The notes under the pieces: generated by a model
What the model was told of the DNA's origin: nothing
The model's input: the letters and a program-made list of their open reading frames with translations, nothing else
Databases searched by the model: none
Translations under genes and position numbers: made by a program
Part shown: one piece after another, positions 12,404 to 49,700 of the stretch
How positions within the stretch are numbered: position 1 is the first letter of the stretch
Layout: each line of letters starts with the position of its first letter
NCBI GenBank assembly: GCA_965178125.1
Contig: OZ237754.1
Location: forward strand, 558,001-622,000
From: Bilabrum cf. latius
Taxonomy: Eukaryota
DNA length: 64,000 nt
Direction: 5' to 3'

Positions 12404-15400
12404 ATGGCACAAGATCGGCCATCCTGGGCCCAGCTGTGCTTTAACGAGCTCGCTAAGTCAGGAAATGCGCTGGCAGCGGCGATTGGCGATGAAGCTGAAG
12501 CCGCAATCAGCGCTTTGCGCCATGCGCCCGCGCACAGGAGGCATGGCTCGTTCGCAGGCGACGACGAGCACGAGCACGAGGGAATCGAGGACAGCAGAGA
12601 GAGCGATGGCGCGCAAGGCCATAGTGGTAGCAGTTCATCTAGCGTGGCATCCGATGTGGCAAGGTTCCTTCCCAGTTTTGATGACAAGTCGTAGCTGCCG
12701 ACGTCGGCTCTATTTCCATTTGCTCTGCACTTTGCTGCCAGCGAACACGCAGATGCGTTCGTTTCGGCTATTCTGGCTATGCGACCTTCTGTGCAGCTTG
12801 CTAGTGAGAGCGTGTGCCCCTTGGGCGTGACTCGAACCCTGTTCCGAGCGATCGGACGGCTGGACTCTTCAGTGGAAGAGGCCTCGTTTGCCGGCATCCA
12901 GCACTGCTCGCTCGTCCTAGACACCGTGCATCGCTGCATGGAGGTATGGCGACCCGCTGAAGACGCAGCGCAAGAAGCAGCCGCGCGAAACTGGGCCAGG
13001 GAGGGGCTGGCAGAGGGCAGGGAACCGGCGGGCGCGGCCGCCGGGGCCGGGGCCGGCACAGCCGCTATTGCAGCCGACGGTGCTGGAGGTGGCTTCGTGG
13101 GAGAGGGCGGCATCCCTGCGGGTGAGAACAGGGGGGGCGACTGGTCTGGCATGGATGCTGCCAATGACGAGAGCATGCAGCCGTACCTTCTGCCCTATGG
13201 CAACAAGGCGCTGGCCAGCAAGCAAGCGGCCATCGCCCAGCGCGCAAGCACGATGACCGGCGATAGTGCCGTCGAGGATCCAGAGGCCTTGGCGGCAGGA
13301 AGTTCCTCGCAAACGGATACCACGCCTCTATTTCGCTACACGGCAGAGCGTCGCATGATTCATCGGCGAAGCGGCGCGATACCTTCGGATGGGGGAAGCA
13401 GAGCGGGCGGGCTTTCAAAGGGAACTGGCCCGCGCAGCAAGCGCAAATCGATGTCTGGAGCGCTGGCCCGCGAGAAGGCTCCCCTGAGGGGCAGCATGGA
13501 GCTGCAGTTCATTCGCACGGATCCCATCCGACCGGCGTGGCACATCGTGTCTCTTCCGCATGGCAGTAGCGGCCGACCGTCGCTCAAGATCCGAACGAGT
13601 GCCCCGCCATCTGCCAAGGTCGAGCTGCTGTTCCCGTCTGCCACAGTTCGGGCGCAGTTCCTCGCTAGGCTGTACGCGTGCATGCAGACCACCATGCCTA
13701 GGCCCATCATTCCCAAGCCGGCGGATCCAGAGCACCTGCTGGTGCCACCTGACGAGCTCAAGAAGACGGCCAGCCTGTCGACCCCGGAGCTCTTGCGTGT
13801 CGTAGCAGAGGGCCAGAAGATCGCGGCGAGGCTCCAAGCGCTGGATGACAAGAGGAAAGGGCTTTCAAGCGATCGTAAACGCGGATCAATTCTCTCACTA
13901 AGACCGTCGCTCGACACCAACATCGCACCCATCATGCTGGAGGCACCGGGCCAGGCTCCCTGGAACAGCACAGGCGAAGACGCTGGTGCTCAGGGTCCCA
14001 GTGTTGCCGCTAGGACCAAGCCGCTAGGTCCTGACACAGGAAGCCCTATGCGGACAATCCAAGAGTCGAAAAGCGGGGAGAAATCCAGCGCTGGTGTGGG
14101 TGGCCCCACGTCACCGATGACGTCATCGTCGTCACTGCGCCGCCGTACGCGGCGAGGTATGTCTGGTGATACTGCCGGGACTATCCCATTGCCAGGCTGG
14201 GCTGCTGCGAAAATCGCCTATTTGAATGCCTCCTCCCAGCAGCCGTTCAATGAGCGCGTCAGGCAGTACTTCCAGTCGCGGAACGGGCTCGGCCGTCGGC
14301 AAGGCACTGCCTCAAAGGAGGTCGTGGGATCTGTTAGCGGCAGCTCCAAAGGATTCGACTCAAGAACCCTGGCGCCTGACGTCGCTAGCTCGCGGACGGA
14401 ACACCCGTGGACGCCCATGATGGACGGTGTGCCGGTAAGGCTGTCCGTCGTCAACTGGAAGGTGGGCTGGCAGGCACCACCTGACAACCCCGACGAGCTA
14501 GCAAGGGCGATGGCACCGGAGGCAGCTGACCTGTACGTAATTCATCTGCAGGACGTGGCCTTCACCCATCGCAAGGAATGGATCAAGGCAGTGGAGAGCT
14601 TGCTGAGCAGCTGCCCTGCGAGGCCCGATGCCAGCGTGGTACCTTGGGGACGCGCGCCTGAAGGGGTAGGAGGCGGGGGAGGAATCTATTCCCAATCTGC
14701 GATCGCAGACGCGATGCATTCCGGCACGAAGCAGACTGAAGCTGGTGCGACCTCTTCTACTAGCCACAGGGCTTCAGCGCGGGGTCGCGACAAGCGAGGA
14801 GATGACGCAGACGGAGCTTCAGTTCGGAGTGAAGGCTCCAAGGATGGCTTGATTAGTGGAGCAATGGGCGAAGACAGCAACAGTGACTGGAGCGGGGTAG
14901 AAGCAGACAAAGTGCCCCGAGGTCTGTTGCAGCTTGCTGTCGATGCGATACGAAACGACGACCCGACGCTCGCCAGAGCAACTCGTGAGGACGTCGCTGG
15001 TCTTCGCCTGCTTGCTCAGCTAGGCGACCGTGGAGCCGCGATGGTCCTCGATCGGCGAAGAGGCAAGAGTAGGCGAGGAAGCATGGCCAGTGTGTCTTCA
15101 GCTTCCCGCATGGAGGGTCGCAGTAGCCCTGGCCCCGGTAGGTCTCACGCAGCACCCGCATCCGGCACGGACAGCGCCGTTGTTGCGGGTGCCAGGGGAC
15201 TGAAGAATCTCCATGGTTCATTCGGCTCGCTCCTTGAGCTGTTAGAGGAGCAGGCAGGGACAACTGGGGACGATACGACTGGGGGCTAGGACTCTGAAAC
15301 CGCGGGCTGGTTCTTTGAGGACAAGAGCGGTGGGCAGGCGTTGCAATCGGGTAGGGCAGACGCTCGGAATGGGGCGTCTGCAACGGCGCTGATTGCCAGT

Positions 15401-18400
15401 CAAGGCGATGATGCATTCCAGGCCATGTAGGAGGGAATGGGGTCGCAAGCCTTTGCGTAGACCGTGGTGAGGTGCTTGGAGCGCCTTGGTGCAGCTCCGC
15501 GCCTCACTCGGCTGGCCCAGCGGGCTGCGCGAAGCCTGGAGAAACAGACTCTAGAGCTCGTAGCAGCCGAGTCCAGGGATGCTAGGATGGGTGCGGTCGA
15601 GCGGAGCAGGAAAGTGGCCCTTGCTAAACTCCGTCAGATCGTGCAGCGTGCCTTCCGATCTCGATCGAGAGCCAGCGACCGTGGCGGGCCTGCCTCTGGT
15701 GGCGTCGGCAGCGCCGCTGGTTCTGAGGCTGGTGGTGGTGCCGCCGGGCAGGAGTTCTCCTCACCAGAGGAAGCCTACGCGATTCTGCTTTCTGGGAAGG
15801 ACAAGAAGACGAGTCTTTTTGCAATGGCCGGGGGCAGGCAGGAGGGTGGAGTGTGGCAGTACAACCAAGGCTTGATCGCTGATCGCACGAGGGCACGCGC
15901 AACACGGATGTCTTCGTAGTAGGCCAATGGCGCAGAAGGCGACAGCGACGGCGACATCGATGGAATGGGCTACACGTAGCAGAAGGCCTCTCAACCCGTT
16001 GGAACCCAGTCGGCTTGGCGTAGACCGGAGCCTAGCGAGGAGGCATCGAGCCGGTACAGGACAATTCGCACCGTGCAGTATCAGGGCCTCATGTCGCTTG
16101 TAGTAGTACGTGCAGAGCTGGTCCCAAGGGTGACAAAGGTTAACGTCAGCGTTGCACACGGTGCTCGCAGCCCATCCAAGTGCAGGGGCCACGGGAGTCC
16201 GACGGGTAGGGGGCAACGAGGAAAGGCGGTGCGTGCGTCCATGTTCGCTGGCCAACAACAGGCCCCCATCTACCACGGTGCAGAACATGCCGAGCACAGG
16301 CAGCACGTGCCACCGATAACACCAAAAGCTGAAGCTTCTCTGGCTGCTCTATCGTCGACTGCGAGTCGCTAGAGCTTCACCATGGGCAGCAGAAGACCAA
16401 CCCTTCACTCGCTTGGGGCAGCTGCAGTGCATGAAGCCACCGACCAAAGCGGAGCCGTTCAGCTGCCCCGTGCAGGTCTGTACGCCCACCCATCGGCAAT
16501 TGGGTGTTTAATGAAGGATGCCTTCGACAGCGACGATACGGATGCTGACACCGGAGAGAGTGCGACAGATGGGGAGTACCCCACGAGCGTGCTGCCCGCC
16601 GCCGACTGCGTGCACATGTACGCGCAGCATGGCTCATCCCCCTCCAAGGTATGTGATGTTGACGCGGAGGAAGCCGTGAGAATCTTCGCGACGGACCACA
16701 AGAAGCTTCAGCAGACGCTGCCGCGGGTGCACCCGCTGGCCCCTCCAGCGGACGTTGATGATGCCTACAAGAGCGTCGTAGTGAGCCATCGGATGCTCCG
16801 GCACAGCAAGCGAAGATGCCCGGCGAGCATTGCTATCGCGTTTGAGCTGTTCGAAGGACCCTCGCTATGTTTTGTCAACGTGCAGCTGGACGCCGGTCCG
16901 GAGCAGGAGGGGCGCAGGCACAGGCAGCTAGGCAGAATTCTGCGCCGTCTTGCGCGCAGCATGGGCAACGACGCCTTTGCTTCGTATTGCAGGGCCACGC
17001 ACACCGTCGAATGGCCGCAGCTTGGAACCAGTTTGCACCACGTTTTTGATGACGTCGTTGTTGCAGGCGATATGGGCTTCGGCCAGGGGCCCTCACAAGC
17101 GCTGGCTTATCCAGCGGCGCGCACGCCGTTGCCCCTCGGTATCAAAGAAGCCATCGCGGTCACAGACACGGATGCCGATCCGGAGCTTGAGCCCACGCTT
17201 CAGAGGCTCTGGGCAGCGGCAGTGGCCGGAATCCGCGTGGAGCTGACACGGTCCGTGAGTGTACGACGACCACGATGGGCAAGGTGGATCGGGCCTGGTG
17301 CTGCGTACGATCTTGAGCTCTTTGTGATGCGAGCTAGCAAGCAACCGGGCAGGCGGATGTCTCGCCTAAGAAGCAGCGGGAGCAAGGCAGGATTAGTTAT
17401 GTCTGATCACGATTTAGATCTAGCGGTGGGCCTCGCTCAGCCGATGAGCCCATCGGGCAGCTCTAGCAGCAGCAGCAACAAGGGCCAGCGGCTGTCCTTT
17501 GCACCACCCCACGCTAGAGGGCGGGACGACTCGAGGAGGTCAAAGCGATGGGAAGAGAGGCGCAAGAAGCTACAGCTGCTGAAAGAAAAAATGAATAGGA
17601 AGGTGGGCCGCAGTGGCCCCGAGGAATCGGACGGCGTGTCTTCCACACCTGACAATGCAAGCCCCCGCAGTAGCAGGGGCTTGTCAAGGCTGACTAGCTA
17701 CCAGTCAGCCAAATCAAATGCATCGGGCAGCCAGACGCCTAAACTTAAGACTCTCCGGCGTGGGAAAACTTCGTTCATGGCATCGTCTAGAAACAGGAGG
17801 GCAAGCGACATTGCTGCTATTCTTCGAGAGCGAGGCAGAGCGGCAGGCGCACCGGTTGTGTCATCATCCGACAGCTCCGATGATGACGAGGTTCGCGAGG
17901 TCGATATCGTGATACCTGACTACATGCGACCACCCGCGATGGGTAGGCGCGGCTCGACTGGAACACCTCCTAAGCCGCAAAGGGCAAAGTCGATGTTCGA
18001 ACGGATTGCGGGGGGCTTCACCGCCGCCACGCGCTACTTGAACAGGACGAAGACTGTGCAGGAAGAGCATGAGGATGAGATGGCCGCGGCTGAGTACCAG
18101 GCAGGCATGGCGGCCGCAGCGGCCGAGGGCGTCGACGGCAGCCAGGCCGACGTGAAGCTCTACGAAATCACAGTGTCCGTACCCATGGCTATGCTGCGGC
18201 TCGCCAGATCCAAGCCCACCAACGCGACAAAGTTCCTCCACATGTTGCTTGAGAGCGAGGCGAACGAGCAGCAGCGATCAATGCGCACTTGGAGGGTGAG
18301 ACGGTCCCTGTTTGAGTTCCACTGCCTGCACCGGCTGCTCCGGGCCAGCTCCAACGCTGAGCTGCCGCGGTTCCCTCTCCTGAAGCAGCGGCGCTCCGGC

Positions 18401-21400
18401 GCCCTCTTTGTTGAGAAGAGGCGGGTGTCTCTAGAGAGATACATCGTGCAGCTGGCCAGGATTCCCGCCGTGTGGCGCGTGCCTCACCTGGCCACGTTCT
18501 TGGATTCGCCAAGCGAGCCAGTGCTTAGGACGTCGGTGCTTAAGGCATGGGAGGACGCCCTCGCTCGAGACAAGGGAATTCCGTCCGATGCCCTTGATGT
18601 GGGATTCCCGAGCACTTCGGACCGAGTCGGGCTTAGAGATGGGGAAGTGCTGCCGGAGTTCACCGCCCCAGCGGAGTCGGGCGCTGGAGGCATGGGAGGC
18701 ACAAGTCCCAATTCCATCGAACGACGGTTGTGGCTGGCCGGCCGGCGATCCTTGTTTGGACCAATGGGGCTTGTTGTTCCCACGACAGCCTAGATAGTGT
18801 TCCGATTGAAGACCAAGGCGGCTGCGGTGCACTCAGTGGACGTTGCTGGCGCGGCTGATGGGCACGAATCGGACGACTCGGCCCAAGTTCGATTGCCGGG
18901 CACTGCCAACAGCATACCGTGCTTTCGGCCGGTGATTGACCTGGCGGCTGGCACCAGCAGCGAGCTCCACTCCGTAGCGTTGAAAGAAATCTAGACACAG
19001 TGCATGCTGCTTGAGCTCGCGTGCAGACCTGCACATGCTACCGCGCCGGCCTGGGCTAGGTCCTCAGCATTGCGACAGGCCGCTCGACTGGAGGACATGG
19101 TGGTGCAGCCGGACAAGGTGCTCGCAGGGCTGCTGCTTCGGAACCGAGGCACACTGGCAGTGCAAGAGCTGTTCAAGCGCAGCATGTTTGATGCTCGCGC
19201 CAGCAGCAGTGTCTCCAGTGCCGGGAACATTATCGCAGGTCGATCGTTGCTTGGCTTCCTTGGCAGCAAGGTCCAGGCAAAACATGAGGCTGGCAGCCGT
19301 GGGCGCGCAGGGAGACCCGCGGATGACTAGAGCGAGCCGACACCGCAGCAGCAGCTGCAGCATCGCAAGTTTGTGATGGCAGCAGCCATGTCCACAGGCT
19401 TGTACTCGTTCGCGAGCGACGGGCACTCCGCCGACGCTTCTGTGCGCCTGGACGAGGGAGGTTCTGTGATCGTGCGTCTGCTCGACCTCGAGTTTCTCCC
19501 ATGCCTGCCCCAACGAAATGTTCTTGATGGGACGAGCGCTGATGCAATCGCGCCAGCGGGACTTGCCGCTGGTTCCACCACAGCGAGCGCGGTGTCGACT
19601 GCTGCAGGGAGCCAAGCCACAGGCACAGGAGCGGCAGGCAAGCTGGACGACGAGGCTGATGCGGATGAGATTGACGGCGATTCAATCGACCATAGCATCT
19701 GGACCAAGCTCGCTCATGGGCACGAAAAGACAGGGCTTAGCCTCTCTGCAGCTATCCACTCCAAGAGCGCCTAGGGAGTTGCCACTGCACCCATGATAGG
19801 CGCCTACGCAATCGAGCAACGCGAACAAATTTCCATGTTTCGGTAGATTAGACGAGCAGCAAAGTCCTCTAGCATTTGCAGGGGCAAGGTCCCTAACGAA
19901 CCGCAAGCGAGCGGCCCATTGTCCGTACCAGAGTGCAGATTTAAGTGGAGCGAGTCTGTCATCCCAGCCATCGTGCTGCAAGACCCGAACCAGTTCCAGC
20001 ATGGCCCAGAGGAGGAGCTGGTTGTTGTGCTTAGGTCTCGGTACGACAAGCTGCTGTCGCGTCGGGATGCATTCGTAGGCACCGCGACGATCAAACTGGG
20101 CACGGCTGCCAGCTAGACGAACCCCGTGGCGGGTCCCCCTCGCCCTGACGAGCCTCCGGGCTGGAGATCCCCACCTGCGTCCGTCGAGTCCAGCGTCATT
20201 GGAACTGCGATTGGGGGCAGGCACCCAGCGGCGTCAAAGTACGTTGAGGATGAAACTGTGCGCATCGCTAGCTTGGGTGAGCCGCCAACCCCCCACCCCG
20301 AGTCGTGGTCCATTGACGATTTCTCCGCAGAAGCGGGCTCAGATGACGACTCCGATGACTCGGACGGCGTGGGTGACGGCGTGCGCGACGAGGAAATGGG
20401 TGTCGGTGGAGGGGCCCCATCTGTGGCTTGGTCTGATCGGAACGACGGCAGCATGATTGCTGGCGGAGGTGGCGTGCATGGAGAGGTACTTAGAGGCATG
20501 TGCCGGTCCCGGCTGGTGAGTGACTCGCCAGACGCACACCGGCTTGGTGTGAAAGGCAATAACGGGGCATTTTTCGTGCCCGTGTATGCACCCGGTGGAC
20601 ATCGTGTGGCCGGTTGGCTGCATGGCAGAGTTGCAGTCATCGTGCGAGAGTCGCCGGCACAGGAGGCTGCACGAGCTGTCATGCTGCGACGGGAAACTCT
20701 CAGAAGGCAAGCGCTCGCCAGCCCGCAGCTGCGATCGTTCTTCGTGCCTCTTGCCGCCAGCGGTTTCTCGAGAGACACGGCAGGGGGCAAGGGCCAGAGC
20801 GGTTCGGACCGGGACTCGGATCTGTCCGGGGACGAGTCTGAGGGATCGGAAGACTATGACTACGCAATCGTGGTGATGCCTGGCGGTCTCATCTCCAAGG
20901 AGAAGGGTCTTCGCAGCCCAGGCATCCGCATTCCACACCCGGTGCAATGGTCTCAGGCGCAATTAAAGACCTTCCGCGACCAGGTGAAGGACTTTGTGAG
21001 GCACTCGAGCATTTAGGACGCGGGTGGGCGCCAGACCTCCCTCAAACTTACTCGCTCGTTGCACATGCGGTGCGGGAATTCAGTCCGTTTGCACGACGAA
21101 CAGGGAGTGTACGTTGGATACCCGATCCAGTTGGAGTTTGTGGGGCTTGAGTGGACGGTGATACGCAGGTATCGCCAATTCGTAGCTCTCGATGCAGCAC
21201 TACGGGCACACGCCGTTGCGTTGCGAACTGCCGTGGAACTGCAAGCGAAGCAGGTGGCTGCCGAGAAACAGGCTCTAAGGGAAAAAATGGATTCAGACGC
21301 TGCGACGCACGAATGGCGGCTAGGAATCGGTCCCGCACATTCTTCTGACGTCAACGAGAAGCTGCAAAGACGGTTTGGAGCCGCTGTGGGGTCCATGCAT

Positions 21401-24400
21401 CACAGCAAGGGACGGAGCGAATCGCTAGACGGGCCGGAGAGCTTCTCTGGCCACAGCATTGATGGAAACGATGCGGAGGACGCGGAGGCTCAGGCGCTCG
21501 GGGACAAGGAGGCATTCCTTCGGGCCATGTCGCGACAGCTCGGGATCGAGCAGCTGCCTAACGTGCCCAGCAAGTTTCATCTCGCAAGCGCTCTGGGCAA
21601 CCGGCTGGCGGAATCTCGGCGGGAGGCTTTCCAGGACTATCTCAGGGACCTTGCCAAGCTGCCGTTTGTGTGGCAGCACCCTGCGTTCATTCGGTTCCTC
21701 GACAGCCCTAGCAAGATCATCTACCGATCGCAGTCGTACCTTAGAGCCCTAGCCCTGCTCCGCGGGTAGCCTGCCTTCGCGTCCGAAGTAGCCGACTCGC
21801 TCAGCCCGGCTGCAGGGTCCATTGCCTCGGTGACAGACTCGCTTGCAATGATGGGAAGTATGGGCTTAAGCACAGCCCTCACCATTCCAAGACCGCCACC
21901 GACCGGCCGACACGACACGAGCGCTTCGGCAGTTGCCGCCGGTATGGTGCAGCTGTTTGGGCGTGAGTGCGCCGCGAGGGCCTGGGGCGGGGCCAGTTCT
22001 GTCCGTGAGAGACTGCTTGGTGTCCGGCGGGCCACGATGTCAGAGGCAACTCGGATCGTGCGAGCCTCCTTCGGGAACGGGATAGCGGTACCAGCCTGGG
22101 CCGCAATGATCCACGCGTTGAGGGTTCAGCTCATGTCGCAAGCGGCTGCCAGTAGCGTGTCTGGCTCCCAGTCCGTCGCTGGTGATGAGGCAGCTGCAGT
22201 CGACGCGCTTGATATGGCCCGGGCTGCACCGCGCATTCCGATGCGGCGGTCATCATTTGCCGGACTGCTGGGCGCAGCAGCGCGCCTTGGAACTCGCGCG
22301 GGGGGACAGCCGCTCGAGGTTGATTACTCGCCGAAGGTGTTCCAGAGATCCACGTATCTTGCCAAGTTCGACGACGGCAGCACGTTCCAGGAGGCTGCAC
22401 TGCACGTGCAATCCAGCCCCTACATGCGCCCACCAGGCATGCTGTCTCCGGAAGCCATCGAGCTGAGGCATTTCCCGGCATAGGTGGGTAGAGTGAAAGA
22501 CCCCGTCCCGATGCTTCAGCTGGACCAACTGGAGGAACAGGAAGCGACCGTCGACCGCGAGCTGGACGGTGATGCCAGCGCTTCTCCACCTCTTGATCCT
22601 GCCAACCCGGCTATAGAGACAGGGGCAGACAATCAATAGACACCCGCCATGAACCTGCCTGCCTTTGTGGCGCCAAGCAGCTCAGGAGGTGCATCTTCTC
22701 CTACTCACCAGCGATGGTCATCGCACCTGAAGGAAAGGTAGGGCGAGGAAAACGACTCGTATGGACCCAACCCCGCGGGCAAAAGTAGGGCCGGGTCTAG
22801 CCAGCAGCACGAAGCGAAGAGTAAGCATCCATCGCTGCTTGACAGCGAGAACAGGTTTGGACCGCTTGCGGTGCATTCCACCCACCTTCCGCCGGCAGAC
22901 GGGCACCGGAACGACGGCAACGAATCAGATGCCACCGAGCTTGTGGAACAAGATGGTGGCCTCACTGACAACGACGACGGTGATACGGGGACTGGGTTGG
23001 GAACGGAGTCTGCTGCAGACGAGCACGACTAGGCAGAAGAAACGATCGAGAGGGAGGCAAAAGCAATCGCTTTGGCGAGACGTACTTCCTTTAAGCCAGA
23101 CCCAGCCGAAATCAACCAGGATGCTGGCCAGCACGAAGGCAAGCAGCTCGCTCGGAAGCTGACAGGGGAGCAGCGTGACATGCGTGCCCATGCTTCCATG
23201 CCGACCAACCCGCTCTTCCCCACCGATCTCGGGAAAGCAAAGCAGCTTCTCGCCAGCCACCGCAGCCAGCGATCCGTGTCAACAAAGGCGACGCTTACCG
23301 CGGAACAGCTGGCCCACGCTGCCGAGCTGGCTCGCACAACGTCATCGCGGGCCCGGCAGCAGCCTCGAACAGATCGAGAAACCACTTCGCAGCAGCTGAT
23401 GCCTATCCACTCAATGCCCAGTGTGTCGACCGTGGGGAGTGGCAGCAGATACCTGGAGTCTGCAGAGGAGGAGAGAGAGCAAACAGAACGGGAGTACAAA
23501 CTGGCGCAGGAGCTCGGTGTAGCGAGGCCGAGCGCTTCTCAAGGCAACAAGCGGGACCGCGGGCGATCACGCAGCAGATCGCCGCCGCTGGGTAGCGGCC
23601 GACACAGCCGATCTCCGTCCCCTGTTGATGGGCTGAAACGATTCTCCAGATCACAAGATCGATCCTCTCCCACCAGCGACCGCACCACCAAGCGCACAAA
23701 GTATTCGCCTCAAATGCCGTGGGAAAGCCAGCGCGAGTCGATGCGCAGGCGGGGACACAGATCAGGGACTAGCGATTTGGGGACGATGGCTACGGTGTTC
23801 CTGGGCTCCATGCAGGATCACCTTGCCGGTGAAATCGACGACTCACCAGGGGCGCACAAAGCCTCTCGTCGGGGAGACCTGCAGCACAGCGGCCGAGTGC
23901 TGACCGTCACGAGGTCAGCTTCAGTGCCTACCACGAGCTCTGGCGGTGGAGCAGCACCTTTCAGTCCTTTGAATGCCAGTACAAAATCGACGTGGAGGGT
24001 TCGACAGCCGAAGCGGGATGCTGTCGCGGCTGAATCCAGGCGTAAGGTCGCCCAGGAGGCTTACGATCGAACACTCCGGAAGCGCGTGCAATCAAGTCTG
24101 CCAGTTTCGGGGGCGGGTGCGCCTGCGCCGTCGGCATCTACGCCACCGTACCATGCTGCAAACTACGTCGACGACCATGATCTGGAGGCCATTGACATGC
24201 TTAGCGAGTCTTCTGACGACGACCAGAAGGAGGCTGCTACTCTGCGGGCCCAGACCAAGATGCTGCAAGAAGCAAGGGGCAAGCTGAAGGTGGAGGTTTC
24301 TCCCGATCTCGAGGGCAAGCTGAGGCTGGTACCAAGGCAAAGCAAGTACCGGGGGGACGCATCGCTGGATCGAATGGAGTTTGCTCACCACACCATCAAG

Positions 24401-26218
24401 GCGCGCAGGAAGTTGATCGATGACGTCATTTTGCGGAGCAAAGAGCTGCTCCGAAGCATGGGGAAGGGGTCTCCCGCCAGCTCGTAGGCTCTCAAGAGCC
24501 AGGATGGTGATGGCATGGGCGAGGACAGCTTCAGAGACGAAGACGATTTGACAGCAAGCGTTGCATCGACTTCGAAGGCCTCAAGCATTGAGCTGAGTGC
24601 TCTGCACGTAAAGCCGCTTCCCTCCGCCAAGAAGGGTTTGCCTGCAGCTAGGCCACCTGTGACATCTGGGACATCGACCATCGCAGAGCTTCGGGCCGCC
24701 GGCCTGGCTCAGAGCAGTCTCCGGGGACTCTCCCCGCGCTCATCGATCGAAGACGTCGACACACCGCGCAAGACCGCCCTTCGCAAGGAGTCGGAGCACT
24801 CCGCGCGGCGTGGCAAGGGGAAAGCGGTGCGATTCGGACCGCCATCGAGTCGAGGCAAGGGCAGTGCAGAAGCTTCAGCAGGCCAAACGGAGGTCAATGG
24901 CAGTCCCAAGTAGCCGCGCGTCTAGGCTGTCGATTCAATCGCCCCACCCTAGCCACCAGCCGTGTCAGGGCACAAGGCGGAGGGGGGGCACATTCCGGCC
25001 GTGCCAGGCAGCTCTGCAGCGGCACAGCAAAAGAATGCGCGCGGTGATACGTCCGAGTCGAAGAACGATGGGGCGGACTCAGGAGGTGGTGGTGCAGGTG
25101 GTCCCATCGAGGATTTTGGCGAGTCTCTCCTCCTGGATGTGCAGCCGTACGAAGCTGGGTTAGTTGACGAGGAGGGCATCCCGCTTGGGACAGCAGTCGG
25201 CACCAATCGTAGCAACGAGGGCAGCGCCAGCAGTAGCAACGGAGCTGACCGTGAGAAAAGTAGCAGTAGTGCAAGCTCCAAGAAATCGTCATCCGTTGGT
25301 GGCGCGCCCAAGATTGGGATTCGTGCTCCACAACCTGAGGGACTGGACTCGGGCCCCAGCTTTGCCTCGAGTGTTGAAACGCCGCGGATCCATTTTGACT
25401 CGGACGAGAGTGTGGACGAAGCAGCGCTCATCCGGCAGGCCGTCAACAAGAAAGCAATGAGAGCTGAGAGGAAGAGCCAGAGATAGGAAGCAAAGGCCTT
25501 TGCGTACGGTGGAAGCCCCTCTGCCGAGGCCGAGCCAGCACAGTTGTCGTCGCTAGCACCGCCTACTGGTGTATCCGTGGCGTAGGGCTCGCCTGCTGGA
25601 ATTTCTAGTGGTACTGGCGCAGCGTCGCGGGGAGGGTCCGCTGCCGAGAGCTCCGCAGAAGCACAGCCGCAATCGACAGGCTCAACTGCCCCTGGCGCAA
25701 ACGCTGAGTCTGCACCTGCACCTGCTGCTGGCAGTACAACACAGGCAAATGTGGACAAGCCGCAGGCAAGCAGTGCAGATGGCAAGGCGGGAGGCAAGCC
25801 TAAGCGAACCGTGTCGGTTAAGCACCAGGACGTCCTCGATCAGGCACGTGTGGAGCGGAGGAGCGGGGTTGCCTCATCGGCTAGGCCCCGCAGACCGAAG
25901 CGGGCAGCACCCAAGCCGAGCGTGCTCGTGGGCAGTATGGTGGGTGCAGGCAGGCCATTCCGTGGACGGGAAGGCATGCCTGACGACGCACTGCCCTACC
26001 CAGCGGCAGGAGTAGGACCTGAGGCGCTGCTACTCACAGGCGGTCTCCCTTTCCCCGAGGCTGGTTTCGGAGACCGGGTCATGGTGGACGGCTTCAGCTT
26101 CGAGGCGGCCGAGGTGCTGGCCAGGGAGGGCCCGAAGGGGTTGCGCAGGCTGGAGACCGAGAAAGAGATTCGGCTGGTGCGGAGGGGGATGGAGCTAGCG
26201 GGATTGCACGAGTCGTGA
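12404..26218 (+). CDS. Giant intronless phosphoinositide-related protein (~4604 aa): PH-like, degenerate inositol polyphosphate 5-phosphatase, PX, C2-like, PX, long disordered tail
   Basis: 16 ORF-track pieces in one frame; gaps checked by hand contain 26 TAG and no TAA/TGA until TGA 26216. 5-phosphatase-like segments RLSVVNWKVG..DLYVIHLQDV, SLCFVNVQLDAG, VVVAGDMGF; PX motifs WRVRRSLFEF..LPRFP..EKRRVSLERYI..FLD and WTVIRRYRQF..LPNVPSK..ESRREAFQDYL..FLD. Confidence 0.85.
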
Positions 26219-28275: not shown

Positions 28276-31200
28276 TCAGCATCCGGGATCCGGAGATGCA
28301 CCCCCTAACGTGGCACCAGCCATTCCGTCCATGTACCTGTGAGCCTCTGCCGTTCTGCCCGCATCCAACAGGAGCGCCACCAGCTCCTGCACCGTGGCCC
28401 TGTACTCCTGGCTCTGCTTGCCCTTCTGCAGGGTCAGGGCCTCCACTAGGTGAGACAGTGTCTTGACTTTATCCGTAAATGACGAATGTGTAATCATGGT
28501 GCGCATTCTCTTCAAGACTTGAAGATAGGCAGGATGCAGCTTGCTCAGCGCGGTCTCCAATATCTACCTGCATTGCTCCAAAAGACTCATGGCCTCCAAA
28601 CACTTGCCCTGCGAGCGCATGCCTACTGCCATGCTGTTGAGCGTACGGGCGTACTCGGGAGGCTTCTTGCCTAGTGCGGTCTCCAGTATCTACCTGCATT
28701 GCTCCAAGAGATTCATGGCCTCCAAAAACTTGCCCTGCAAGTGCAGACACGAGACCATGCTGTTGAGTGTACGGGCGTACTCGGGATGCATCTTGCCTAG
28801 CGTCGTCTCCTAAATCTACCTGCATTGCTCCAAAAGATCCATGGCCTCCACATGCTTGCCCTGCGACTTGAGACATAAGGCCATGCTGTTGAGCACGGTG
28901 GCATAGTTGGGATGCAGCTTGCCCAGTGCAGTCTCCATGATCTGCTTGCATTGCTCCAGGATCTCCAATGCCTTAGGCTACTTGCCCTGTGATTGCAGAC
29001 ACGAGGCCATGTTGTTGAGCGTACTGGCGTACTCGGGATGCATCTTGCCTAGCGTTGTCTCCTAAATCTTCCTGCATTGCTCTAAAAGCACCAATGACTC
29101 CGCATACTTGCCCTGTGAGTCCAGGCACGAGGCCATGTTATTTAGCGTAGTGGCGTAGTCAGGATGGTCCTTGCCCAGTGCGGTCTCCATGATCTGCATG
29201 CATTGCTCATACAGCTTCAATGCCTCCGCATACTTGCCCTGTGGGACAAGACATGAGGCCATGTTGTTGAGCGTGGTGGCGTAGTCAGGATGGTCCTTGC
29301 CCAGGGCGGTCTCCCGTATCTGCCTGCATTGCTCATACAGCTTCAATGCCTCCGCATACTTGCCCTGCGACTGCAGGCACAGGGCAATGTTGTTGAGCGT
29401 GGTGGCGTAGTTCGGATGCAGCTTGCCTAGCGCTATCTCCCGTATCTGCCTGCATTGTTCATGCAGCTTCAATGCCTCCGCATACTTGCCCTGCGACTGC
29501 AGGCACGAGGCAATGTTATTGAGCGTACGGGCGTAGTTCGGATGCATCTTGCCTAGCGCTATCTCCCGTATCTGCCTGCATTGCTCATACAGCTTCAATG
29601 CCTCCGCATACTTGCCCTGCGACTGCAGACATGAGGCCATGTTGCTGAGCGTACGGGCGTAGTCAGGATGCATCTTGCCTAGCGCTATCTCCCGTATCTG
29701 CCTGCATTGCTCATACAGCACCATGGCATCCTGACGGTCTATGACTAGGCATGACGCTATGTCATGCAGCGTTGTAGCAAGCCTCAGGGTGTCGCGTGAT
29801 ACACCAGGCTTGGCCATAAGGTCGGCAATGCAAGTAGCAGCGGCACGCCGAGTATGTTCCAGACCAGAGGACTTTGCCGATAGATTGCTCAGTGCATCCA
29901 ATACACCGGCTTGGTCTGACCCTTCGACTCGCTACGTGTGCGCCAGCTCTTGCACCAAGCTGATTGCACCCTCTATTGCATCCATTCGATGTATACCCCC
30001 AGCTGCTGCAAGGCTGGTCCCTGCACAGTTTGCGCATGAGGTGTGCACGACACTTTGCATGCCGATGCTGGGTCGAGTCGTAGCCTGTGCCAGATCAACA
30101 GTAGTGTCGACCCCAGTTGATGCGAACAGCTGTGCCGGTAGCTACCAATCTATGGAGCGTTTAGCTGTTTCATCCGAAAGGTCCAATCGGCGGCCATCTA
30201 TAGTTCCAAAGATTGAGTGGTTGCCATTCACCTGTCCATGCAGCAGAGCCGCACCAACAAGGCCCCTCTCCCCCTCGTCCTCCAGCTGATCCACAAGCAG
30301 ACGGACATGCCTGAGACCCAGACCAAACGAGTGCATCAACCGCTTCAGCACGACACGATGCACCGCTGGATCTGCCTATACATCCACTGTGCGGTAAAGA
30401 GCCAGCACCTCGGCGCTAGCCTTGGCATACAGCTTACCGATACACTGCCGGGCTCGTGACCTAGCTCTTGCATCTCCTCTCATGATCAAGTCCGGGCTCA
30501 GGCCCTCGAATGCATCATCGCCCTCCAGCTCCCGCAGCCGATGCGCAGCCTCGGGAGGCAGCAAACAGGTCATAGCCGCATTACCAGAGTAGTACCATCG
30601 TGGACATGCCACGATCGCCACCATGATCACCTTGCCGCTGCTGTCCTTGGCGCAAGCACTAATGCAGCCTGAGTCAACGTGGCGCTGCATGCCACCTGAC
30701 TTGAAGGTGACGCCTGCCATCACTCCAGTCGAATCACACCATTTCTGCAGGGCAGCGCGCACCAGCTCAATCGAGACAGATTGTGGACGACCAGACATGC
30801 AAAATGAGTCCAGCTGCCCACGGTGCAGTATTGGCATACCGCCCGGCTCTAATCCAGCGGTTCTCGTGTCAATTGCCCACACACGCGGCTTGGCCTCATC
30901 GGACCTCATCCAGTCCATCCACGGCACATCAGGCATCAGCAGCCGGTGTGTATCCAGTATCATCCTCTACCCGCTCGGCAGCTGGTGCACCTCCACATCG
31001 AATGGAAGATGCATGTTGACCTCAACATCGCCCAGCTGCTCACACACATGCTCCACATTGGGCACAGGCTTTCTGTAGTCTAAACGCGCGCCTGATGACT
31101 CAATTGCAGCGAACACAGCCCGGGCCAGCTCCTGCTCCTGCGGTGTGAGTCTCTTCTCGTCCTCCGCCGTCAGCCGCATGCACCCATGATCCAGTGCCCC

Positions 31201-32808
31201 CCTGACACGCTTCACGCAATCAGGGTCCATGCCACGCTCTTGCAGCACATCGAGAAATGTAGTGGAAGTGGAAGTACTGGTACCACCAGTGTCTGATGCA
31301 ATGTATTTGTGCTGCACTGCCTTGAAACCGCGGGCCACATACTCCGCGATACCAAAGTGCCGCGCAAGAGGCTTCACCACGTCCTCCAGCTGCTCCTCGT
31401 CCTGGTGCATAGATGTCCCTCCATCTGAAGACCCCACTCGCAGCGTCGTATCACGAACCGATGTTGCGAAGGCAGTTTCGAAGGCTCCAGCATCAGGCTC
31501 TTGCCCACCGTGTTGCGATTCATGCGACTTACGGAATGCTGCCTCATCCCATGCCATGCACCCTCGCACATCCACTCGAGCAAATGCCTGCACACGGATC
31601 GAGTAGTGCCCACCTCCCACCAGACCCGCACACACATCCACGCACTCCAGCAGAGGTGTCGACACGTGCACACTGTCCATAGCGTGCACCCAACGACTCG
31701 CTGCCGCCTCCCGTTTGGCCGCCTTGGCTGCCATGCGTGTGCTGCCGTAGAAGCCCAGGTGGTCGAACGCGAACTTCAGAAACAGGCCCAGACCCTCATG
31801 CACTGCCTTGATGCCCCCGGCCATGCCACCTGCATCGATGAATGTGAGACCCAGGGCCTTCTCGATCTTGGCCTTGTCACCATCGGTGAAGCCCACGGGG
31901 TCCAGCGACCTGTCACCGTGCCTCCATTTCAGCTCCATCTCGGGAAAACCCTCCAGCGCTTTGCGCACGTCCTGCCTGAAGAGCACCCCGATGCGGTCTA
32001 GCCTTTGCTTGCGATCCTGCTGCTCGTGCGGCCACAGGGCCAAGGTGCGCTTGGCGGCCTCGAATGCAGGCTGCCTGCCCTTGGGGGAAGGAGCTTCATC
32101 GTTGCTATCGTCAGCAGTCTTCTTCGTCCTTGCATCTAATAATGGACTCATTACTGCGTGTCCCGCGCTGGCCCGCCCATCTCCGGCCTCATTGCCACCC
32201 ACAGACACAGGCCCATACGATGGCATGGGTACCTGCCCTGCCCCGGCCCGCCCATCTCCGGCCTCAATGCCACCCACAGACACAGGCCCATACGATGGCA
32301 CCGGCAGGTCCCCTTTGCTGTTGTGCCCGATAATTCTCTCAGACTTCTATTCGACAGCCTCAGATTTTCCTATCGTGCCCGCTTCACCTCCGCCCCCCAC
32401 TTTCAGTGCCCTCCCGTCACTGGATTCCGCTACCTCGTACGGCAGTCGGACAGCAGATGACTAGTCCGCCCCAGCACAGGATGCAGCATGCGAAAGCACA
32501 CGAGTTTTGGTCATTGTCAAGTCCGCAGACATTTCGGAGTCGGCATGTACTTGGGGCGATGCTGGGGGCCTGACCGATTCTGTTGGCGGCTCAATCCCCG
32601 ATTCATGCTGGCCGGGGTCTCCGCCAAAACTTCCATCTAAATCATCGTTTATTTGTTGTACTAAAGTCGTGGTTGATCTATGTACACCGCTGGGATCTGT
32701 CGTTTCATTGCGCGAGCAGCAAGCCGCCGCTTCGCCCTCGGGACCTATATGCACTTGTAGCGGGCAGCTACCAGAGGCAAGAGGCTTATCTAGTTGTTTG
32801 TCTGACAT
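28276..32808 (-). CDS. Clu-domain protein with C-terminal kinesin-light-chain-type TPR array (~1510 aa, 12 in-frame TAG)
   Basis: Six ORF pieces in one frame joined only by TAG; Clu-like motifs GGMAGGIK..FLKFAFD..FYG..AAKAAKRE, VGSSDGG, PFDVEVH..ILDTHRL, HSFGLGLRH; 42-aa TPR units; ends TGA. Confidence 0.85.
28545..29725 (-). repeat. 126-bp (42-aa) TPR tandem array, ~9.5-10 units
   Basis: EQCx[Q]I motif recurs exactly every 126 bp from 28564 to 29698. Confidence 0.95.
32160..32301 (-). repeat. 72-bp coding duplication (PSYGPVSVGGxEAGDGRAxAG)
   Basis: Two near-identical copies in the N-terminal region of the Clu-TPR gene. Confidence 0.85.
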
Positions 32809-33144
32809 TCTGTGTAGGGCAAAACAACTGTCCGGATTCCCTTACAATTCCTGGAAGCAGAAGGCCGCTATGTAGTAGACAGCTGGGATTGAGCTGCCAG
32901 TGGTAGGGATCGATGTCGCAGTGCGAATCAAGAATGGTTTGTTGGCCGCGGCAGGAATCATTAAAAAGTTGTAGAGAGCCGATGTACGTATCACGACTCC
33001 GTTTTATTGTGAAAACGGCTGGGACACAAGACGTTGCAACCGCCTGCAGTGCCAAAACGCCGTGTACCTCCCTCCATACCCCCAGAGCTGAGGCACTGCG
33101 CTGCTATTCTAACTCTGTGCTAGTAATGCACATCGTCAATCGCA

Positions 33145-34552
33145 TCAGAAGTACGACTGTAGCAGCTTCTCGAGTGTCACGCCTTCCGCCGTTTCGCCCG
33201 AGCAGGCGAACCCCTCAGGCCCCTTCTTCCACCCGCTGGAGCCCTGCCCGTCGCAGCCCCACACCACGAATGCTCGGTTCGGACCCCCCTTCTGGGGCGC
33301 CGCCCCCCCCCAACTCTCGCAGCAAAAGTCCACGTCATTCGACGCGATGTCCCATTTGGAGCGGAAGGGGAAGGAGAGGCTGGCGTTCCCATTCTCTAGG
33401 TTCTGGGCGGCTGGCCGCATGAACTCGCTGGCAACGCGCGTGTCGTTCTGGGACGGCTCGACGAACGCCAGCTTCGCCTGCTCCCAGTGGAGCAGGTCTT
33501 TGGACCGCTGCAGGACGATCTTGCGCCCGCCCGAGCCCGTGTAGTAAAAACCATCAGAAGGCAGATACCTCACGCTGGGGCACGCCTCCACGCCCCCTTT
33601 CGCCTGGCTTGGTGGCAGCGTGACCCACCCGGATCGCAGGTCCCCGTTCTCGTTGTTGTTCACGATCCAGGCATCGCCCGACTCGGTAGCCATCACGTAG
33701 CGGTGCGGAGGAAGGTTCCCCGGCAGGTTCGCTGCCGCGGGTTGCTGTTGTTCTGCACCACTGGCACTGGCATCAGGCAGTTGCTTCTGCTGCCTCTACT
33801 GCTGCTCGCCAGGCCCGTACACCCTCCCAATGTCGGTGTTGGGGCCGCTCCACGTGATACCGTCGGCAAGCGAGCGCTCCCATGTCACCAGATCGCTAGA
33901 GTTGAACACGTACACGCCGCACTCCCAGTGCCCGCAGAACTTGTGGGGAGGGCCAAAGGGCCGCTTGGCCGTCTTGTTGGCGCCTCGCTCGTTCGGCGTG
34001 GCGGATACCCACAGCATTCCGTGGTCATAGTCCACGAATGCCGCCCCAAATCCGAATCCGATGCTATGCGACACGTTCTGAATTACCTGCCCCGTTTCTT
34101 TGTCTCGGATTCTGAAGTAAGAATGTCCGAGGTAGGTCGAGTTCCACAGCTCCTCTACGCCATGCAGGCGAAAATGAAAGCACGATACTATGACGTATAT
34201 GACAAGAAAACAATTCATACAGGCGTACAAGTACATCAGTGTCTCACCATGTCCCCAGTAGGCCCCATATGGGTCCCCCCAACCCGGAATGTCCAGCGGG
34301 CCTCGGCATACGTTTTCAAGAAGGTACATCTTGTCTGCAAAAATTCTCGAGGTCAAGTACTTTGTATTACCAAGTAGAGTTTCACTCAGAGGCGTCAATC
34401 AGTCAATCATCCGTACTCTTACTGTCTTTTGGCCAGAAAAACGGGGTGGTCTCGCACATGGTGGCGTCATACGATCCCAACGTGGCAAAATTCCCGTCGA
34501 GAAAAGCAGTTGCACCTGCAATCATATTGATGTAAACATGCAACAAGCGCAT
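33145..34552 (-). CDS. Secreted glycoside-hydrolase-like beta-propeller (GH43/GH32-like fold), 3 exons
   Basis: Signal-like MRLLHVYINMIAGATA; CETTPFFW, SSDLVTW, EACPSVRY, RSKDLLHW; GT-AG introns 34335-34422 and 34155-34247; TAG 33796 inside EQQ*RQQKQ; ends TGA. Confidence 0.7.
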
Positions 34553-40368: not shown

Positions 40369-40416
40369 CTCAATGGCAAAGATCAGCGTGATGAGGCAGC
40401 GAGCCGCTCCGAGTTG

Positions 40417-46211: not shown

Positions 46212-46720
46212 GGAATCTCACCTGCCACAGGTCCAGTGGATCCACTGGTCTGAATGCGGCATGCTCTAACGCAACGAAGGGACCCGTTGTCGCTCCCCCC
46301 CCCGACTCCCGCGATAGTTCGCCCTAGTGTCCTTCTTGGCTGCTCTCCGCGCCATCGCATCATCTCAGCCTCCACGCACAGGTCCTGGCCGCTCTGCCAT
46401 GCGTCCCTATACGTGCTCACCCCCGCGCGGCGGCCAAGGACCAGGCAGCTGGTCCTCTTCCACTAGCACGTGCCGCCACAGGATAGGTGGCCTATAGTCG
46501 GCGTTAGTTTTGTGCGGTTAGTATCTTTGCAATAAACTTCACAACTTTGATGAAATTGGCTGCTTGCGGAAGGAACCGGAGCAGAATACTCGAAGCAGCG
46601 CGTGGATCGGGTAGCGTGCCCTCTACCAGTACTCATCGCGCGCCCCGGGCTCTAAATGATTTAATGAGTACCAAATAATAGCTGGATACTGTTGCGGATC
46701 CCTATTGTGGAAGCATAATT

Positions 46721-49700
46721 ATGGTAGACTCCGGAGTTGCACTTCGGGAAGAACCCAGGCAGGTTACACTTAGCGAGATTCTGCCGGTACTTCGCAGCAA
46801 GCATGCGGCCGTAAAGTTAGCTGGGCTTCCCCATGTCCTGAGAATGGTGCACAGGTCGCCATCATCCTCGCCCGACCGGTAGCAAGTCTTAAATGCAGTC
46901 GGAAGGCCATTTTTGTTCTCCTTACTTCATCGATCTCGCGGCGAATAGCTTGCCTCAGCACTTACGACTGCAAGAAGTATAGTCTTGCAGCTGTGCTAGG
47001 AGCTTGCGCAAGACCCTGTGTGCTCTCGAAAGCTTCGCGGGGCTGTGCCATTGCTTCTTTCGAGCATTCGAAAAGCCACCGACCCAAGGGATATTTCAGC
47101 AGCAGCGCGGTGCTTTGGAAATATTATCTAGAGTGTTAGTACATTGTCAGGATTGGGGGGGCATCGCACAGTATGGTCGATCTGCGAAGCTATCTGCCGC
47201 CTTGCAAGCCAAAGATGGGACACTGCACCAGGCACCATTTCGAGCAGCAGCAGCACCGACACTAGCCAGGAAGCTATGCTTTGGTGCATGGAAGCACTCC
47301 GTACGTGCTTTCTGGCCGAGTCGCAAGGTAGGTTGCGAGCAGTCGATGCCGGAAAGGAGGTTGGTGCAAGCATGGCAGCTGCTGCCGTGTCGCATGGCGG
47401 TATGGAGACTCTGTCGGCGTTCTTGAGCCATCCCAACGGATCCATTGCTATTGCAGCAGCGTCTTCCATTGATGCTGCCATGGCTGCCATGATGGTAGCG
47501 CACCAGTCGAGCGAGAATGCACCGGGGAGCACCTGGCCGGCATGGGCGAGCGAGCAAGGTGCGAAGCAGCTGCCCGGCGCTCCCAAGACCGGGCGCAACG
47601 AACCGCACCACATTCATCCTGCACCTGCTTTCCTCGGCGCTATTTCTGCACTGTATGAAACCAAAAGTGTGGTAGGAAAATTGGACGAGGGTGAAGAAGA
47701 GACCGGGCGCAGTTCAGGCCAAGCTGAGTATGCTCGGCCCCTGCCCCGAGCCGAGAGCGAGGTGGCCGGTGCCATCCGCAAGTCGGCTGGAGCAGGTAAA
47801 TTTGATATGCCTGGTTCGTCAGACTCCAATCCTGTCTCAGAGAACGCGGAGTAGGAAGAGAAAGCCGGCGACAGAGACGACGGTTCTGCGGTGGCCGGGC
47901 CGGCTTGGTCGTTGGCAGACTTGCAGTGCTCGCCAGAGCAACTGCTTAGTCCTACCGGCGTACTCGTCCCCAGATGGCTGCACGCCCTCAGGCAGGGTCT
48001 GTTGGCCGGGCTGGTGGTTGCAACCGATAGGCAGCACATCCAGTGGCTCCTGCGAGTGTCGTTTTCTGCGATGACCTGCTTTGGCCAGGCGTGGATGACG
48101 GGCCCTGCAATGGGTGGTGAAGACGATGGCGCCTCGGGCGTTGGAAGCGCCCTCGATGGGGATCCTAGACACACGGATGGAAGTGGGTACAAGAGTAATG
48201 GGCGGGATGCCAAAGGATCTAAGGGTGGATCAAGGGCCAGTGCCGCACATGCAAGAACCGCTAGTAGTGGTGAGGCGGACAAGCCGTCCAAGCAGTCTGG
48301 TGACACGGCATCCAATGGTCCAAGCCGGGGCGCTCTTGTGGTGATGCTGGCTCGAATAGCTGCAACAGAGGCTGTGACGTGCATCGATAGCCTTCAGCAA
48401 AGCCTCGTGGATAAAGACTCTGTCGGGGCCGTGGTGCCTTCAACCGCGTCACCTGCTTCAGCTGCGCAAACGCAGAGCGAACCATCGCACTCGCCACATA
48501 CAAGCAAGACAGCACCTAGTGACGAGCCAATGCAAGCCAGCGTTACCCATGATAGTATGCATTCGGCCTCCGAACGTCTTGCAGACCCCGAGGCGCCCAC
48601 AGAAGCTGCCGGCGAAGACGTGCATGGCGGTGACGCTGATGACGATGACGGCGACATACCCCCACCCCTGGAGCCTGCATCAACTCCAATTCAACCGTCG
48701 CCGCAGCAGAGCTCCAGCCCTACTCGAAGCGACTCTGCTGCAGCTGCAGAGCCAGCCTCTCCTGGCACCGCGGACTCAAAGCTTGGGGACGCCCAGTCCT
48801 CCAAGCACCCCCTTTCCAAAACAGAGCCCGACACTGCAATCGCCGCGCTGACGAGACAGCAACGCGCCTACAAAGCTAGGACCGAGATAAGTTGGGCTTG
48901 CCGGGGGCTCGATCTGGCCCTTGCAGTGGTGGGGCATCTCCTGCACTCGCTGCGTGCTGGATTTCGTGAGCAGGGTGACGATGGTGACGAGCTTGTTGGC
49001 GATAGCATCTAGCAAGGATATGAAGGACATGGAACGTATGGACAGCGAATGCGGGCATCGCAACGCCTTGGTCTAGTGGTTTGGCCAACCGATGACTTCA
49101 ACAGTGCAAGCATCCCAACACAAAACAGCTCGCAAGCCGGCAAGCACTCTGCCGATTCAGCTGCTTAGGGCACAGATGTAGGCACAGGCAGCGGGAAAAG
49201 TGTCGACGCAGAGGATTAGACAGTGATGCTGGATGCCTTCGCTCTGCGTTCAGACCGGCTATCTGTAAGCTCTCTTCCCCCCGATGCGTTGCTCGGCATG
49301 AGGAAGGTCTTCTAGGAGACCACCGACCTCGTGTGCTCCTTCGTGCGTGACGTGGGCATGAGCCAGCTTGGCCCTCTCCTGCTCTCGCCGCTGTCTACTG
49401 CACACACGAAGGAGTTTCAGCGCGCGGTCGTTGACGCGTGTGCCGAGGTCGGTCTACGCCGTGGGGTGTCCACTGAGTCCCCCGGTGATGGCGCCGATCA
49501 GCAGCCTGTGGACCTATTCGCCACCCTGGGAGGCCGGGCAGCCGCAGCGTGCTCGCCAGTGATGATGTGCTTGCTATGGATTGCCACTGTGCTCGCCGAG
49601 GAGCCAGACTTGGGTGGTGACTGTCCCAAGTCACTGCGACCCGCGATGGCGGTTTTGGCGCGATGGGCACTCCCTGCAGTGGTGGTCACTGACTTGACAA

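Follow-up and report, generated by a model that had tools for sequence, protein, structure and literature searches.

In-frame UAG is very probably read as glutamine in a GC-rich microbial eukaryote: evidence from a tetratricopeptide repeat gene and its relatives

Introduction

Nuclear genetic codes in which UAG alone is read as glutamine have been described for the fornicate Iotanema spirale (PMC5304391) and for the ciliates Hartmannula sinica, Trochilia petrani and Protocruzia tuzeti (PMC11687900). Iotanema and the phyllopharyngean ciliates mainly use UAA as their stop codon (PMC5304391; PMC11687900). Both UAA and UAG are assigned to glutamine (UAR code, NCBI table 6) in many ciliates, Dasycladales, Cladophorales, Hexamita, Streblomastix and Amoeboaphelidium protococcarum (PMC5304391, PMC11687900), and recoding of TAG to glutamine (code 15) is also known for crAss-like and other gut phages (PMC9523058). 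Here we analyse a stretch of 64,000 nucleotides (contig OZ237754.1 of assembly GCA_965178125.1, positions 558,001 to 622,000), which is called the window throughout, and in particular a gene on its minus strand, gene E, which codes for an array of tetratricopeptide repeats (TPR) and is interrupted by TAG codons. Comparison of genes of the window with those of relatives makes it very probable that UAG is read as glutamine. UAA and UGA have remained stop codons, with UGA as the usual terminator.

The window resembles the nuclear code with UAG as glutamine only (the pattern of NCBI table 15) in having frequent sense TAG at glutamine positions and in using TAA and TGA, both absent in frame, as terminators. 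It differs from the described cases in that it has about 59% guanine plus cytosine (GC) and TGA ends 9 of 10 genes, whereas the ciliates have 27-54% GC. Unlike ciliate macronuclear genes, those of the window are long, contain few introns and have much low-complexity sequence of Ala, Gly and Ser. With the UAR code it shares the capture of a stop codon by glutamine, likely via a mutated tRNA-Gln. TAG has the same meaning as in gut phages with code 15, but the window has spliceosomal introns and eukaryotic domains. We found no literature report of a GC-rich eukaryote with UAG alone as glutamine in a search that had subscription journals and supplements outside its reach. While the code pattern as such is already known, there is a substantial chance that the case in the window has an independent, undescribed origin.

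Results and Discussion

Stop codons and open reading frames

With a minimum length of 300 codons, the standard code gives a longest open reading frame (ORF) of 1130 codons in the window, compared to 4793 codons if TAG is taken as sense. The next longest ORFs with TAG as sense have 1881, 1714, 1521, 1495, 1285 and 1110 codons. No ORF length is gained when TAA is taken as sense. Ten long ORFs, tallied from the first ATG to the terminator, comprise 15,510 codons and contain 97 TAG, 0 TAA and 0 TGA in frame, while the off-frame counts for the same ORFs are 40 and 58 for TAA and 221 and 354 for TGA. If TAA were a glutamine codon at the CAA:CAG ratio, about 41 in-frame TAA would be expected. Their complete absence, the lack of any gain in ORF length and the occurrence of ORFs of relatives that end in TAA rule out the UAR code (table 6) for the window.

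The ten genes are terminated by TGA in nine cases and by TAA in one. TAG accounts for 14% of their glutamine-type codons and occurs on average about once per 160 codons, with the last TAG being located 25 to 531 codons ahead of the terminator. The GC content of the window (about 59%) ranges from 55 to 63%. That the TAGs are inside genuine coding sequence is evident from their number in the ten ORFs, from homology which continues across them and from domains on their flanks. Findings on stop codons cover the window and 29 metagenome loci described below; in both, TAA and TGA are not used as sense codons and act as terminators.

Gene E and its TPR array

Gene E and the features of its product and of its repeat array are as follows.

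28276..32841, minus strand: gene E, open from stop to stop over 1521 codons when TAG counts as sense, 12 in-frame TAG
32806-32808, minus strand: first ATG of gene E (codon 12)
28276-28278, minus strand: terminator TGA of gene E
31288..31788, minus strand: match to the CLU (clustered mitochondria) domain, residues 352-518, PF13236; weak (E=6.9e-6, 26.5 bits against a cut-off of 24)
28528..29787, minus strand: TPR array, ten 42-codon units of kinesin-light-chain type, from U1 (29662-29787) to U10 (28528-28653)
28564..28566, minus strand: TAG, repeat column 30 of unit U10, context E-Q-C-R-q-I
28690..28692, minus strand: TAG, repeat column 30 of unit U9
28816..28818, minus strand: TAG, repeat column 30 of unit U8, which has a second TAG at 28810-28812 (column 32)
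28942..29700, minus strand: column 30 of the other seven units, CAG at 28942, 29194, 29320, 29446, 29572 and 29698, AAG at 29068
29062-29064, minus strand: TAG, repeat column 32 of unit U6
28978-28980, minus strand: TAG, repeat column 18 of unit U7

The encoded protein is disordered at its N-terminus, CLU-like in the middle and made up of the ten TPR units in its C-terminal part. The standard code splits the gene into 13 pieces, and Pfam domains are found on either side of TAGs. Tandem Repeats Finder reports a single array (28526-29719) with a period of 126, 9.5 copies and 82% matches, without indels. The array is matched by the Pfam families TPR_10 (E=1e-87, seven stretches) and TPR_12 (E=3.7e-80), and the best match among solved structures is kinesin light chain 2 (KLC2, E=8.1e-56). 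The tandem units of 42 residues thus fit the profiles of the kinesin-light-chain-type TPR families.

Proteins of the CLU/CLUH type have CLU_N and eIF3_p135 beside the CLU domain. Neither of these two was among the Pfam matches of gene E at E<=0.001, and we therefore call gene E CLU-like and not a CLUH orthologue. One of its homologues (P0009) bears the same precomputed CLU family. Gene E resembles a combination of CLU/CLUH and kinesin light chain TPRs in that a CLU match, above the cut-off but weak, is followed by C-terminal TPR_10/TPR_12 units of 42 residues. It is unlike CLU/CLUH in having ten TPR units, in belonging to a multi-copy family and in having a conserved motif of its own, FDVEVHQLPSGQRM.LD.HRLL.PD.

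From the first array TAG (29062) onwards, neither TAA nor TGA occurs in frame over a further 262 codons up to the TGA at 28276, and the TPR register is kept. Off-frame TAA and TGA have a combined density of about 2.2 per 100 codons in the genes of the window, so that an open run of 262 codons is expected in about 3 of 1000 cases. The array frame is thus more than a product of chance.

A preliminary description of the array had been based on ten units, spaced by 126 bp, with CAG six times, TAG three times and AAG once at the variable position of the context E-Q-C-x-[Q]-I. As the positions given there are plus-strand positions of minus-strand codons, the triplets have to be reverse-complemented; all ten codons are then as described, and spacing and context are seen at every one of them. 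It had also been claimed that the alternation of CAG and TAG points to glutamine without the need for any outside homologue. Column 30 is a genuine case and points in the right direction, but it is a thin basis and this part of the claim was overstated. A codon-by-codon alignment of the ten units uncovered three array TAGs outside column 30 (28810, 29062 and 28978) which had escaped the preliminary description, so that just one of three TAG-bearing array columns points to glutamine. At column 32 (TAGs 28810 and 29062), the remaining units have R (four), M (two) or L (two), with the codons CGG, ATG, CTG and TTG. At column 18 (TAG 28978), they have Y (five), H, F, C or R, with the codons TAT, CAT, TTT, TGT and CGT. 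When the units are clustered, U9 and U10 fall together (81% identical) and U8 falls with U6 (81%), and this nearest relative of U8 has AAG at column 30. The three TAGs at column 30 are in neighbouring, related units and thus represent one or two mutation events and not three independent ones. In addition, solved kinesin light chain TPRs have E or A at column 30, and for this reason the wider family gives no clue to the residue.

Glutamine opposite TAG in close relatives of genes C and H

In public protein collections, the organism and its relatives are present only as fragments that have been called under the standard code. Fragments of two other genes from the window are close enough to reveal the residue at TAG positions.

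11837..26218, plus strand: frame of gene C (gene 11888-26215), 4793 codons, 27 in-frame TAG, ends with TGA
46679..51166, plus strand: gene H, frame of 1495 codons, 15 TAG, ends with TGA

Gene C codes for two PX stretches and shows a weak endonuclease/exonuclease/phosphatase match. Fragments that are 94-95% identical to it (P0033-P0035) have Q in five of five cases at the TAGs 12692, 15917, 15920, 15977 and 21014. Fragment P0033 terminates exactly at the TAG at position 21767 of the window, and another gene C fragment terminates where the window has CAG. For gene H, the homologue search gave nine matches. Two fragments that are about 100% identical (P0036 and P0038) stop exactly at TAGs of the window. 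A relative with 85% identity (P0043) has Q at TAG 46880 (1/1) and stops just before the next TAG, and one with 76% identity stops just ahead of another one. Fragments of relatives that end just before a TAG of the window are P0040, P0043 and P0032.

Taken together, relatives with 85-95% identity have Q at all six TAG columns of genes C and H. In the same alignments, Q occupies 25 of the 27 CAG columns of gene C and 24 of the 25 of gene H, while it is never found at GAG, AAG, TAT, TAC, TGG or TCG columns and only once at 19 TTG columns. It is chiefly by outside homologues, and not by the repeat alone, that the reading of TAG as glutamine put forward in the preliminary description is supported.

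Most of gene C consists of low-complexity sequence rich in Ala/Gly/Ser, all in a single uninterrupted frame.

The gene E family

When the middle part of gene E was compared to proteins of similar length, there was no match. Against shorter proteins, residues 257-1040 retrieved 32 fragments with 34-92% identity. Homology spans TAGs, with fragment P0001 reaching across two and P0002 across three of them. One TAG is located within the most conserved motif of the family.

30967..30969, minus strand: TAG, gene E codon 625, within the motif LPFDVEVHQLPSG-q-RM(V/I)LDTHRLL.PD

At the codon-625 column, Q is found in 10 of 14 protein fragments (E in two, H and R in one each). At codon 822, two of three homologues have Q, while the lone homologue at codon 900 has A. 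In the complete family comparison, Q occupies 12 of 18 cells opposite TAG, 60 of 136 opposite CAG and 7 of 25 opposite CAA, but only 0-6% opposite GAG, AAG, TAT, TAC, TGG, TTG and TCG, seven codons that are one step away from TAG. Fragment ends are also informative: five of 16 fall at Q positions of the window against a background of 4.2%, and one fragment ends directly before the codon-625 column.

Gene E belongs to a multi-copy family, as is evident from paralogue contigs and from 29 metagenome loci. Paralogue contigs in public runs have G at position 30969, which turns codon 625 into CAG. Many contigs that are 85-95% alike cover only the middle of gene E (30455-32073), with joints that skip 83-230 bases. 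This indicates that several gene E paralogues exist in the same organism or sample.

The 29 loci (GC 52-60%, from four data sets) were found by scanning metagenome contigs with motifs of the family. The family ORFs at these loci are up to 2178 codons long when TAG counts as sense and contain 2-28 in-frame TAGs; those that end within the contig use TAA in four and TGA in four cases. At the codon-625 column, 17 of 21 motif-bearing metagenome ORFs have a glutamine codon (13 CAG, 4 CAA). The invariant Q of the motif FDVEVHQL is encoded by TAG in L026 and in L018/L019/L020, the latter being one gene in three records.

A family alignment was built from 22 non-redundant members with 214 TAG codons. 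There are 18 conserved columns with TAG, five of which have a Q majority (holding 16 TAG codons), compared to three of 327 TAG-free conserved columns (binomial P = 5e-7). In a Codetta-like log-odds score over the 214 TAG codons, Q ranks first, ahead of R by 51 nats and of E by 56. TAG columns thus match glutamine in homologues, as judged from the six columns in close relatives, the 12 of 18 cells in the family and the first rank in this score.

Near-identical records from different samples show no TAG difference in 11 pairs, a divergence too low to obtain a rate. Three genes that flank family genes of the relatives are of kinds typical of eukaryotes.

L014:168-3113, minus strand: WSC+GH3 xylosidase-like gene, flanks family gene, 9 TAG
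L012:3-1556, plus strand: Pan3 pseudokinase gene, flanks family gene, 5 TAG
L027:917-1918, plus strand: malate/lactate dehydrogenase gene, flanks family gene, 0 TAG

The TAGs in such flanking genes indicate that the use of TAG extends to unrelated genes in the relatives.

Introns and cellular origin of the window

Contigs of four public runs (X5-X8), none of which is recorded as an RNA run, were placed on the region 29750-49749. For the most part, the stretch is represented in the runs with 100% identity. Some of their contigs skip segments that have the characteristics of introns.

33145-34423, minus strand: intron-bearing gene, weak GH43-like protein, introns of 93 and 88 nt
34155..34247, minus strand: intron of 93 nt, CT..AC on the plus strand, which is GT..AG on the minus strand, skipped in contigs of X5, X7 and X8
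34335-34422, minus strand: intron of 88 nt, GT..AG, skipped in contigs of X5, X7 and X8
34677-36950, plus strand: intron-bearing gene, introns of 170 and 96 nt; the product begins with MGLCASS, a possible N-terminal acylation signal
34826-34995, plus strand: intron of 170 nt, GT..AG, skipped in contigs of X5, X7 and X8
36058-36153, plus strand: intron of 96 nt, GT..AG, skipped in X5 and X8 only

The frames remain open once the four introns are removed. Spliced GT-AG introns indicate that the DNA is nuclear and transcribed and comes from a eukaryote whose introns are few and short. Both intron-bearing genes are located between large intronless genes. Products of the window carry eukaryotic domains (PX, SH3, EF-hand, EF-Tu-type GTPase, acyltransferase and BNR). 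We conclude that the window comes from the nuclear genome of an intron-poor microbial eukaryote with a high GC content.

Relatives of the gene E family were found neither in the viral contig collection nor in the prokaryote genomes searched. We reject an origin from a giant virus in view of the spliced introns, the cellular domain content and the lack of a family relative among the viral contigs and prokaryote genomes. For the acyltransferase, the ESM Atlas gave the protein family only. The EF-Tu-type GTPase domain of gene G (1881 codons; domain at 41263-43065, minus strand) has GTPase families as its nearest Atlas clusters (scores 0.96), and the labelled members of these are largely Nucleocytoviricota. 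We take these neighbours as a lead only, the window looking cellular otherwise. Two eukaryotes with deviating codes were rejected as the source. Amoeboaphelidium is ruled out by its code, which reads UAR and not UAG alone (PMC5304391), and Amoebophrya sp. ex K. veneficum is ruled out as it is AT-rich with all three stop codons ambiguous (PMC12005148).

The region 40417-46062 has word shares of 0.46-1.00 in runs from four studies that carry four coded organism labels, and their contigs do not differ from the window. This may mean that the organism is a eukaryote that lives in co-culture or symbiosis or is a contaminant, or that the runs bear environmental labels.

Two further genes of the window contain in-frame tandem repeats. 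Gene B has a near-perfect coding repeat (8909-9241) of 99 bp in 3.4 copies with 100% identity. At 54595-55137, the C-terminal tail of the acyltransferase is encoded by 6.0 copies of a 90 bp repeat (98%), the unit being rich in Glu, Ala, Arg and Lys and resembling a coiled coil. Both repeats are much younger than the TPR array with its 82% identity. The largest stretch that appears to be free of genes has about 3 kb (51166-54317) and lacks any frame above about 180 codons even with TAG as sense. Rfam and tRNA scans of the window, this stretch included, gave no match.

Weighing the alternative readings of TAG

Several observations weigh against glutamine. Array columns 18 and 32, taken alone, would suggest Tyr or Leu/Arg/Met for TAG. 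Distant homologues of gene H (35-46% identity) have Q at none of nine TAG columns (T, K, P, N, N, D, R, A and S), and CAG columns in the same homologues have Q nonetheless in 10 of 22 cases. In the family alignment, 13 of the 18 conserved TAG columns have another majority residue (D in three, R and L in two each, V, S, E, G, W and Y in one each). About four of these columns are alignment problems, at ORF edges or in stretches of low alignment quality. The TAGs at a W column (19/21) in L026 and at a Y column (15/16) in L021, however, look real. In the GH3 gene next to the family gene of a relative, one TAG is aligned with a P conserved in five of five solved xylosidases shown, while the other TAG columns have S/S/N/N/T, Q/Q/K/K/K and, in two chains that reach the fourth TAG, S; the solved xylosidases are too distant to inform on the residue. 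Scans of the window and of 26 loci out of the 29 detected no tRNA gene. Finally, the contigs over TAG sites need not be derived from RNA, though the runs contain spliced contigs. We interpret the misfits in the family columns, in the gene H homologues and in the GH3 gene as glutamine at sites that tolerate a substitution or in gene copies that have diverged. None of the other residues comes up repeatedly, and the closest relatives all agree on Q.

One alternative is that TAG is a sense codon for another residue, such as Glu, Tyr, Lys, Leu or Ser, each of which has a codon one base from TAG and is a known or conceivable reassignment of UAG. TAG is paired with TAT in five units at TPR column 18 and with CTG/TTG at column 32, the family column 723 has an E majority with two TAGs, and single TAGs occur at the W- and Y-conserved columns. 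Assignments of UAG to Leu, Glu and Ser are known in other eukaryotes (PMC11687900). Against this stand the close relatives, in which all six TAG columns have Q while columns with GAG, AAG, TAT, TAC, TGG or TCG never do, and those with TTG do in a single case. Q leads both R and E by a wide distance in the log-odds score, and the invariant Q of FDVEVHQL is encoded by TAG in two distinct relatives. We thus regard another residue as very improbable. A dual meaning of TAG, as glutamine inside of genes and as context-dependent terminator of some genes, is improbable, too, if less so. The ORFs have been delimited by TAA and TGA, so that a terminating TAG near the 3′ end would escape notice, and in gene A the last TAG is just 25 codons ahead of the TGA. 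Context-dependent codes were reportedly described by Swart et al. 2016. Amoebophrya is a further example of such codes (PMC12005148). In the window, TAGs do not cluster at 3′ ends, as the distances to the terminator given above illustrate, conserved TPR sequence goes on beyond the last TAG of gene E, and the complete absence of in-frame TAA and TGA shows that dedicated stops exist.

The least credible of the alternatives, in our view, is that the TAGs are true stops, be it in a decaying pseudogene, in a repeat array that has acquired nonsense mutations, or in transcripts repaired by U-to-C editing of the mRNA. It is true that gene E is broken into pieces under the standard code and that repeat arrays mutate readily. 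However, TAG is the only interrupting codon, there are no frameshifts, and ten unrelated genes are affected. Homology crosses the TAGs, and these are kept between the records of different samples. Gene E shows neither the mixed stops nor the frameshifts nor the loss of downstream conservation of a pseudogene. As to editing, contigs from runs with spliced cDNA have no C at TAG sites: in those of X5, X7 and X8, no other letter was found over the TAG sites (e.g. 47733-49367, 37187-38625 and 39922-44749).

A model for UAG as glutamine codon and its implications

If UAG is read as glutamine, gene E would be an ordinary member of a multi-copy family in a genome with this code. As CAG and TAG would be synonymous, first-position C-to-T transitions would drift freely, which leads to units that differ by CAG and TAG at column 30. 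The decoding of UAG would be due to a tRNA-Gln whose anticodon, CUA, can pair with UAG and not with UAA. This tRNA-Gln(CUA) would probably have originated from tRNA-Gln(CUG) through a single anticodon change, and eRF1 may have a weakened recognition of UAG. The same reasoning on tRNA-Gln(CUA) and eRF1 was applied to Iotanema (Panek et al. 2017, PMC5304391).

It is possible, and we propose it tentatively, that an undescribed or unrecognised clade of GC-rich eukaryotes with UGA as the main stop, seen at the 29 loci and in sequencing runs with four different organism codes, has independently reassigned UAG alone to glutamine. If this is true, it would be the first such code outside of ciliates and one fornicate, and the loss of the stop function of UAG could not be attributed to codon capture by AT pressure. 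It is rare for nuclear codes to give UAG and UAA different meanings. A GC-rich clade with UGA as the main stop would provide an independent data point on codon capture, driven by mutational pressure, versus an ambiguous intermediate. For practical work, gene callers that use the standard code cut the genes at every TAG, and therefore annotation, binning and homology analyses need a translation table with TAG as glutamine. Such a table applies to the organism and to its metagenomic relatives alike.

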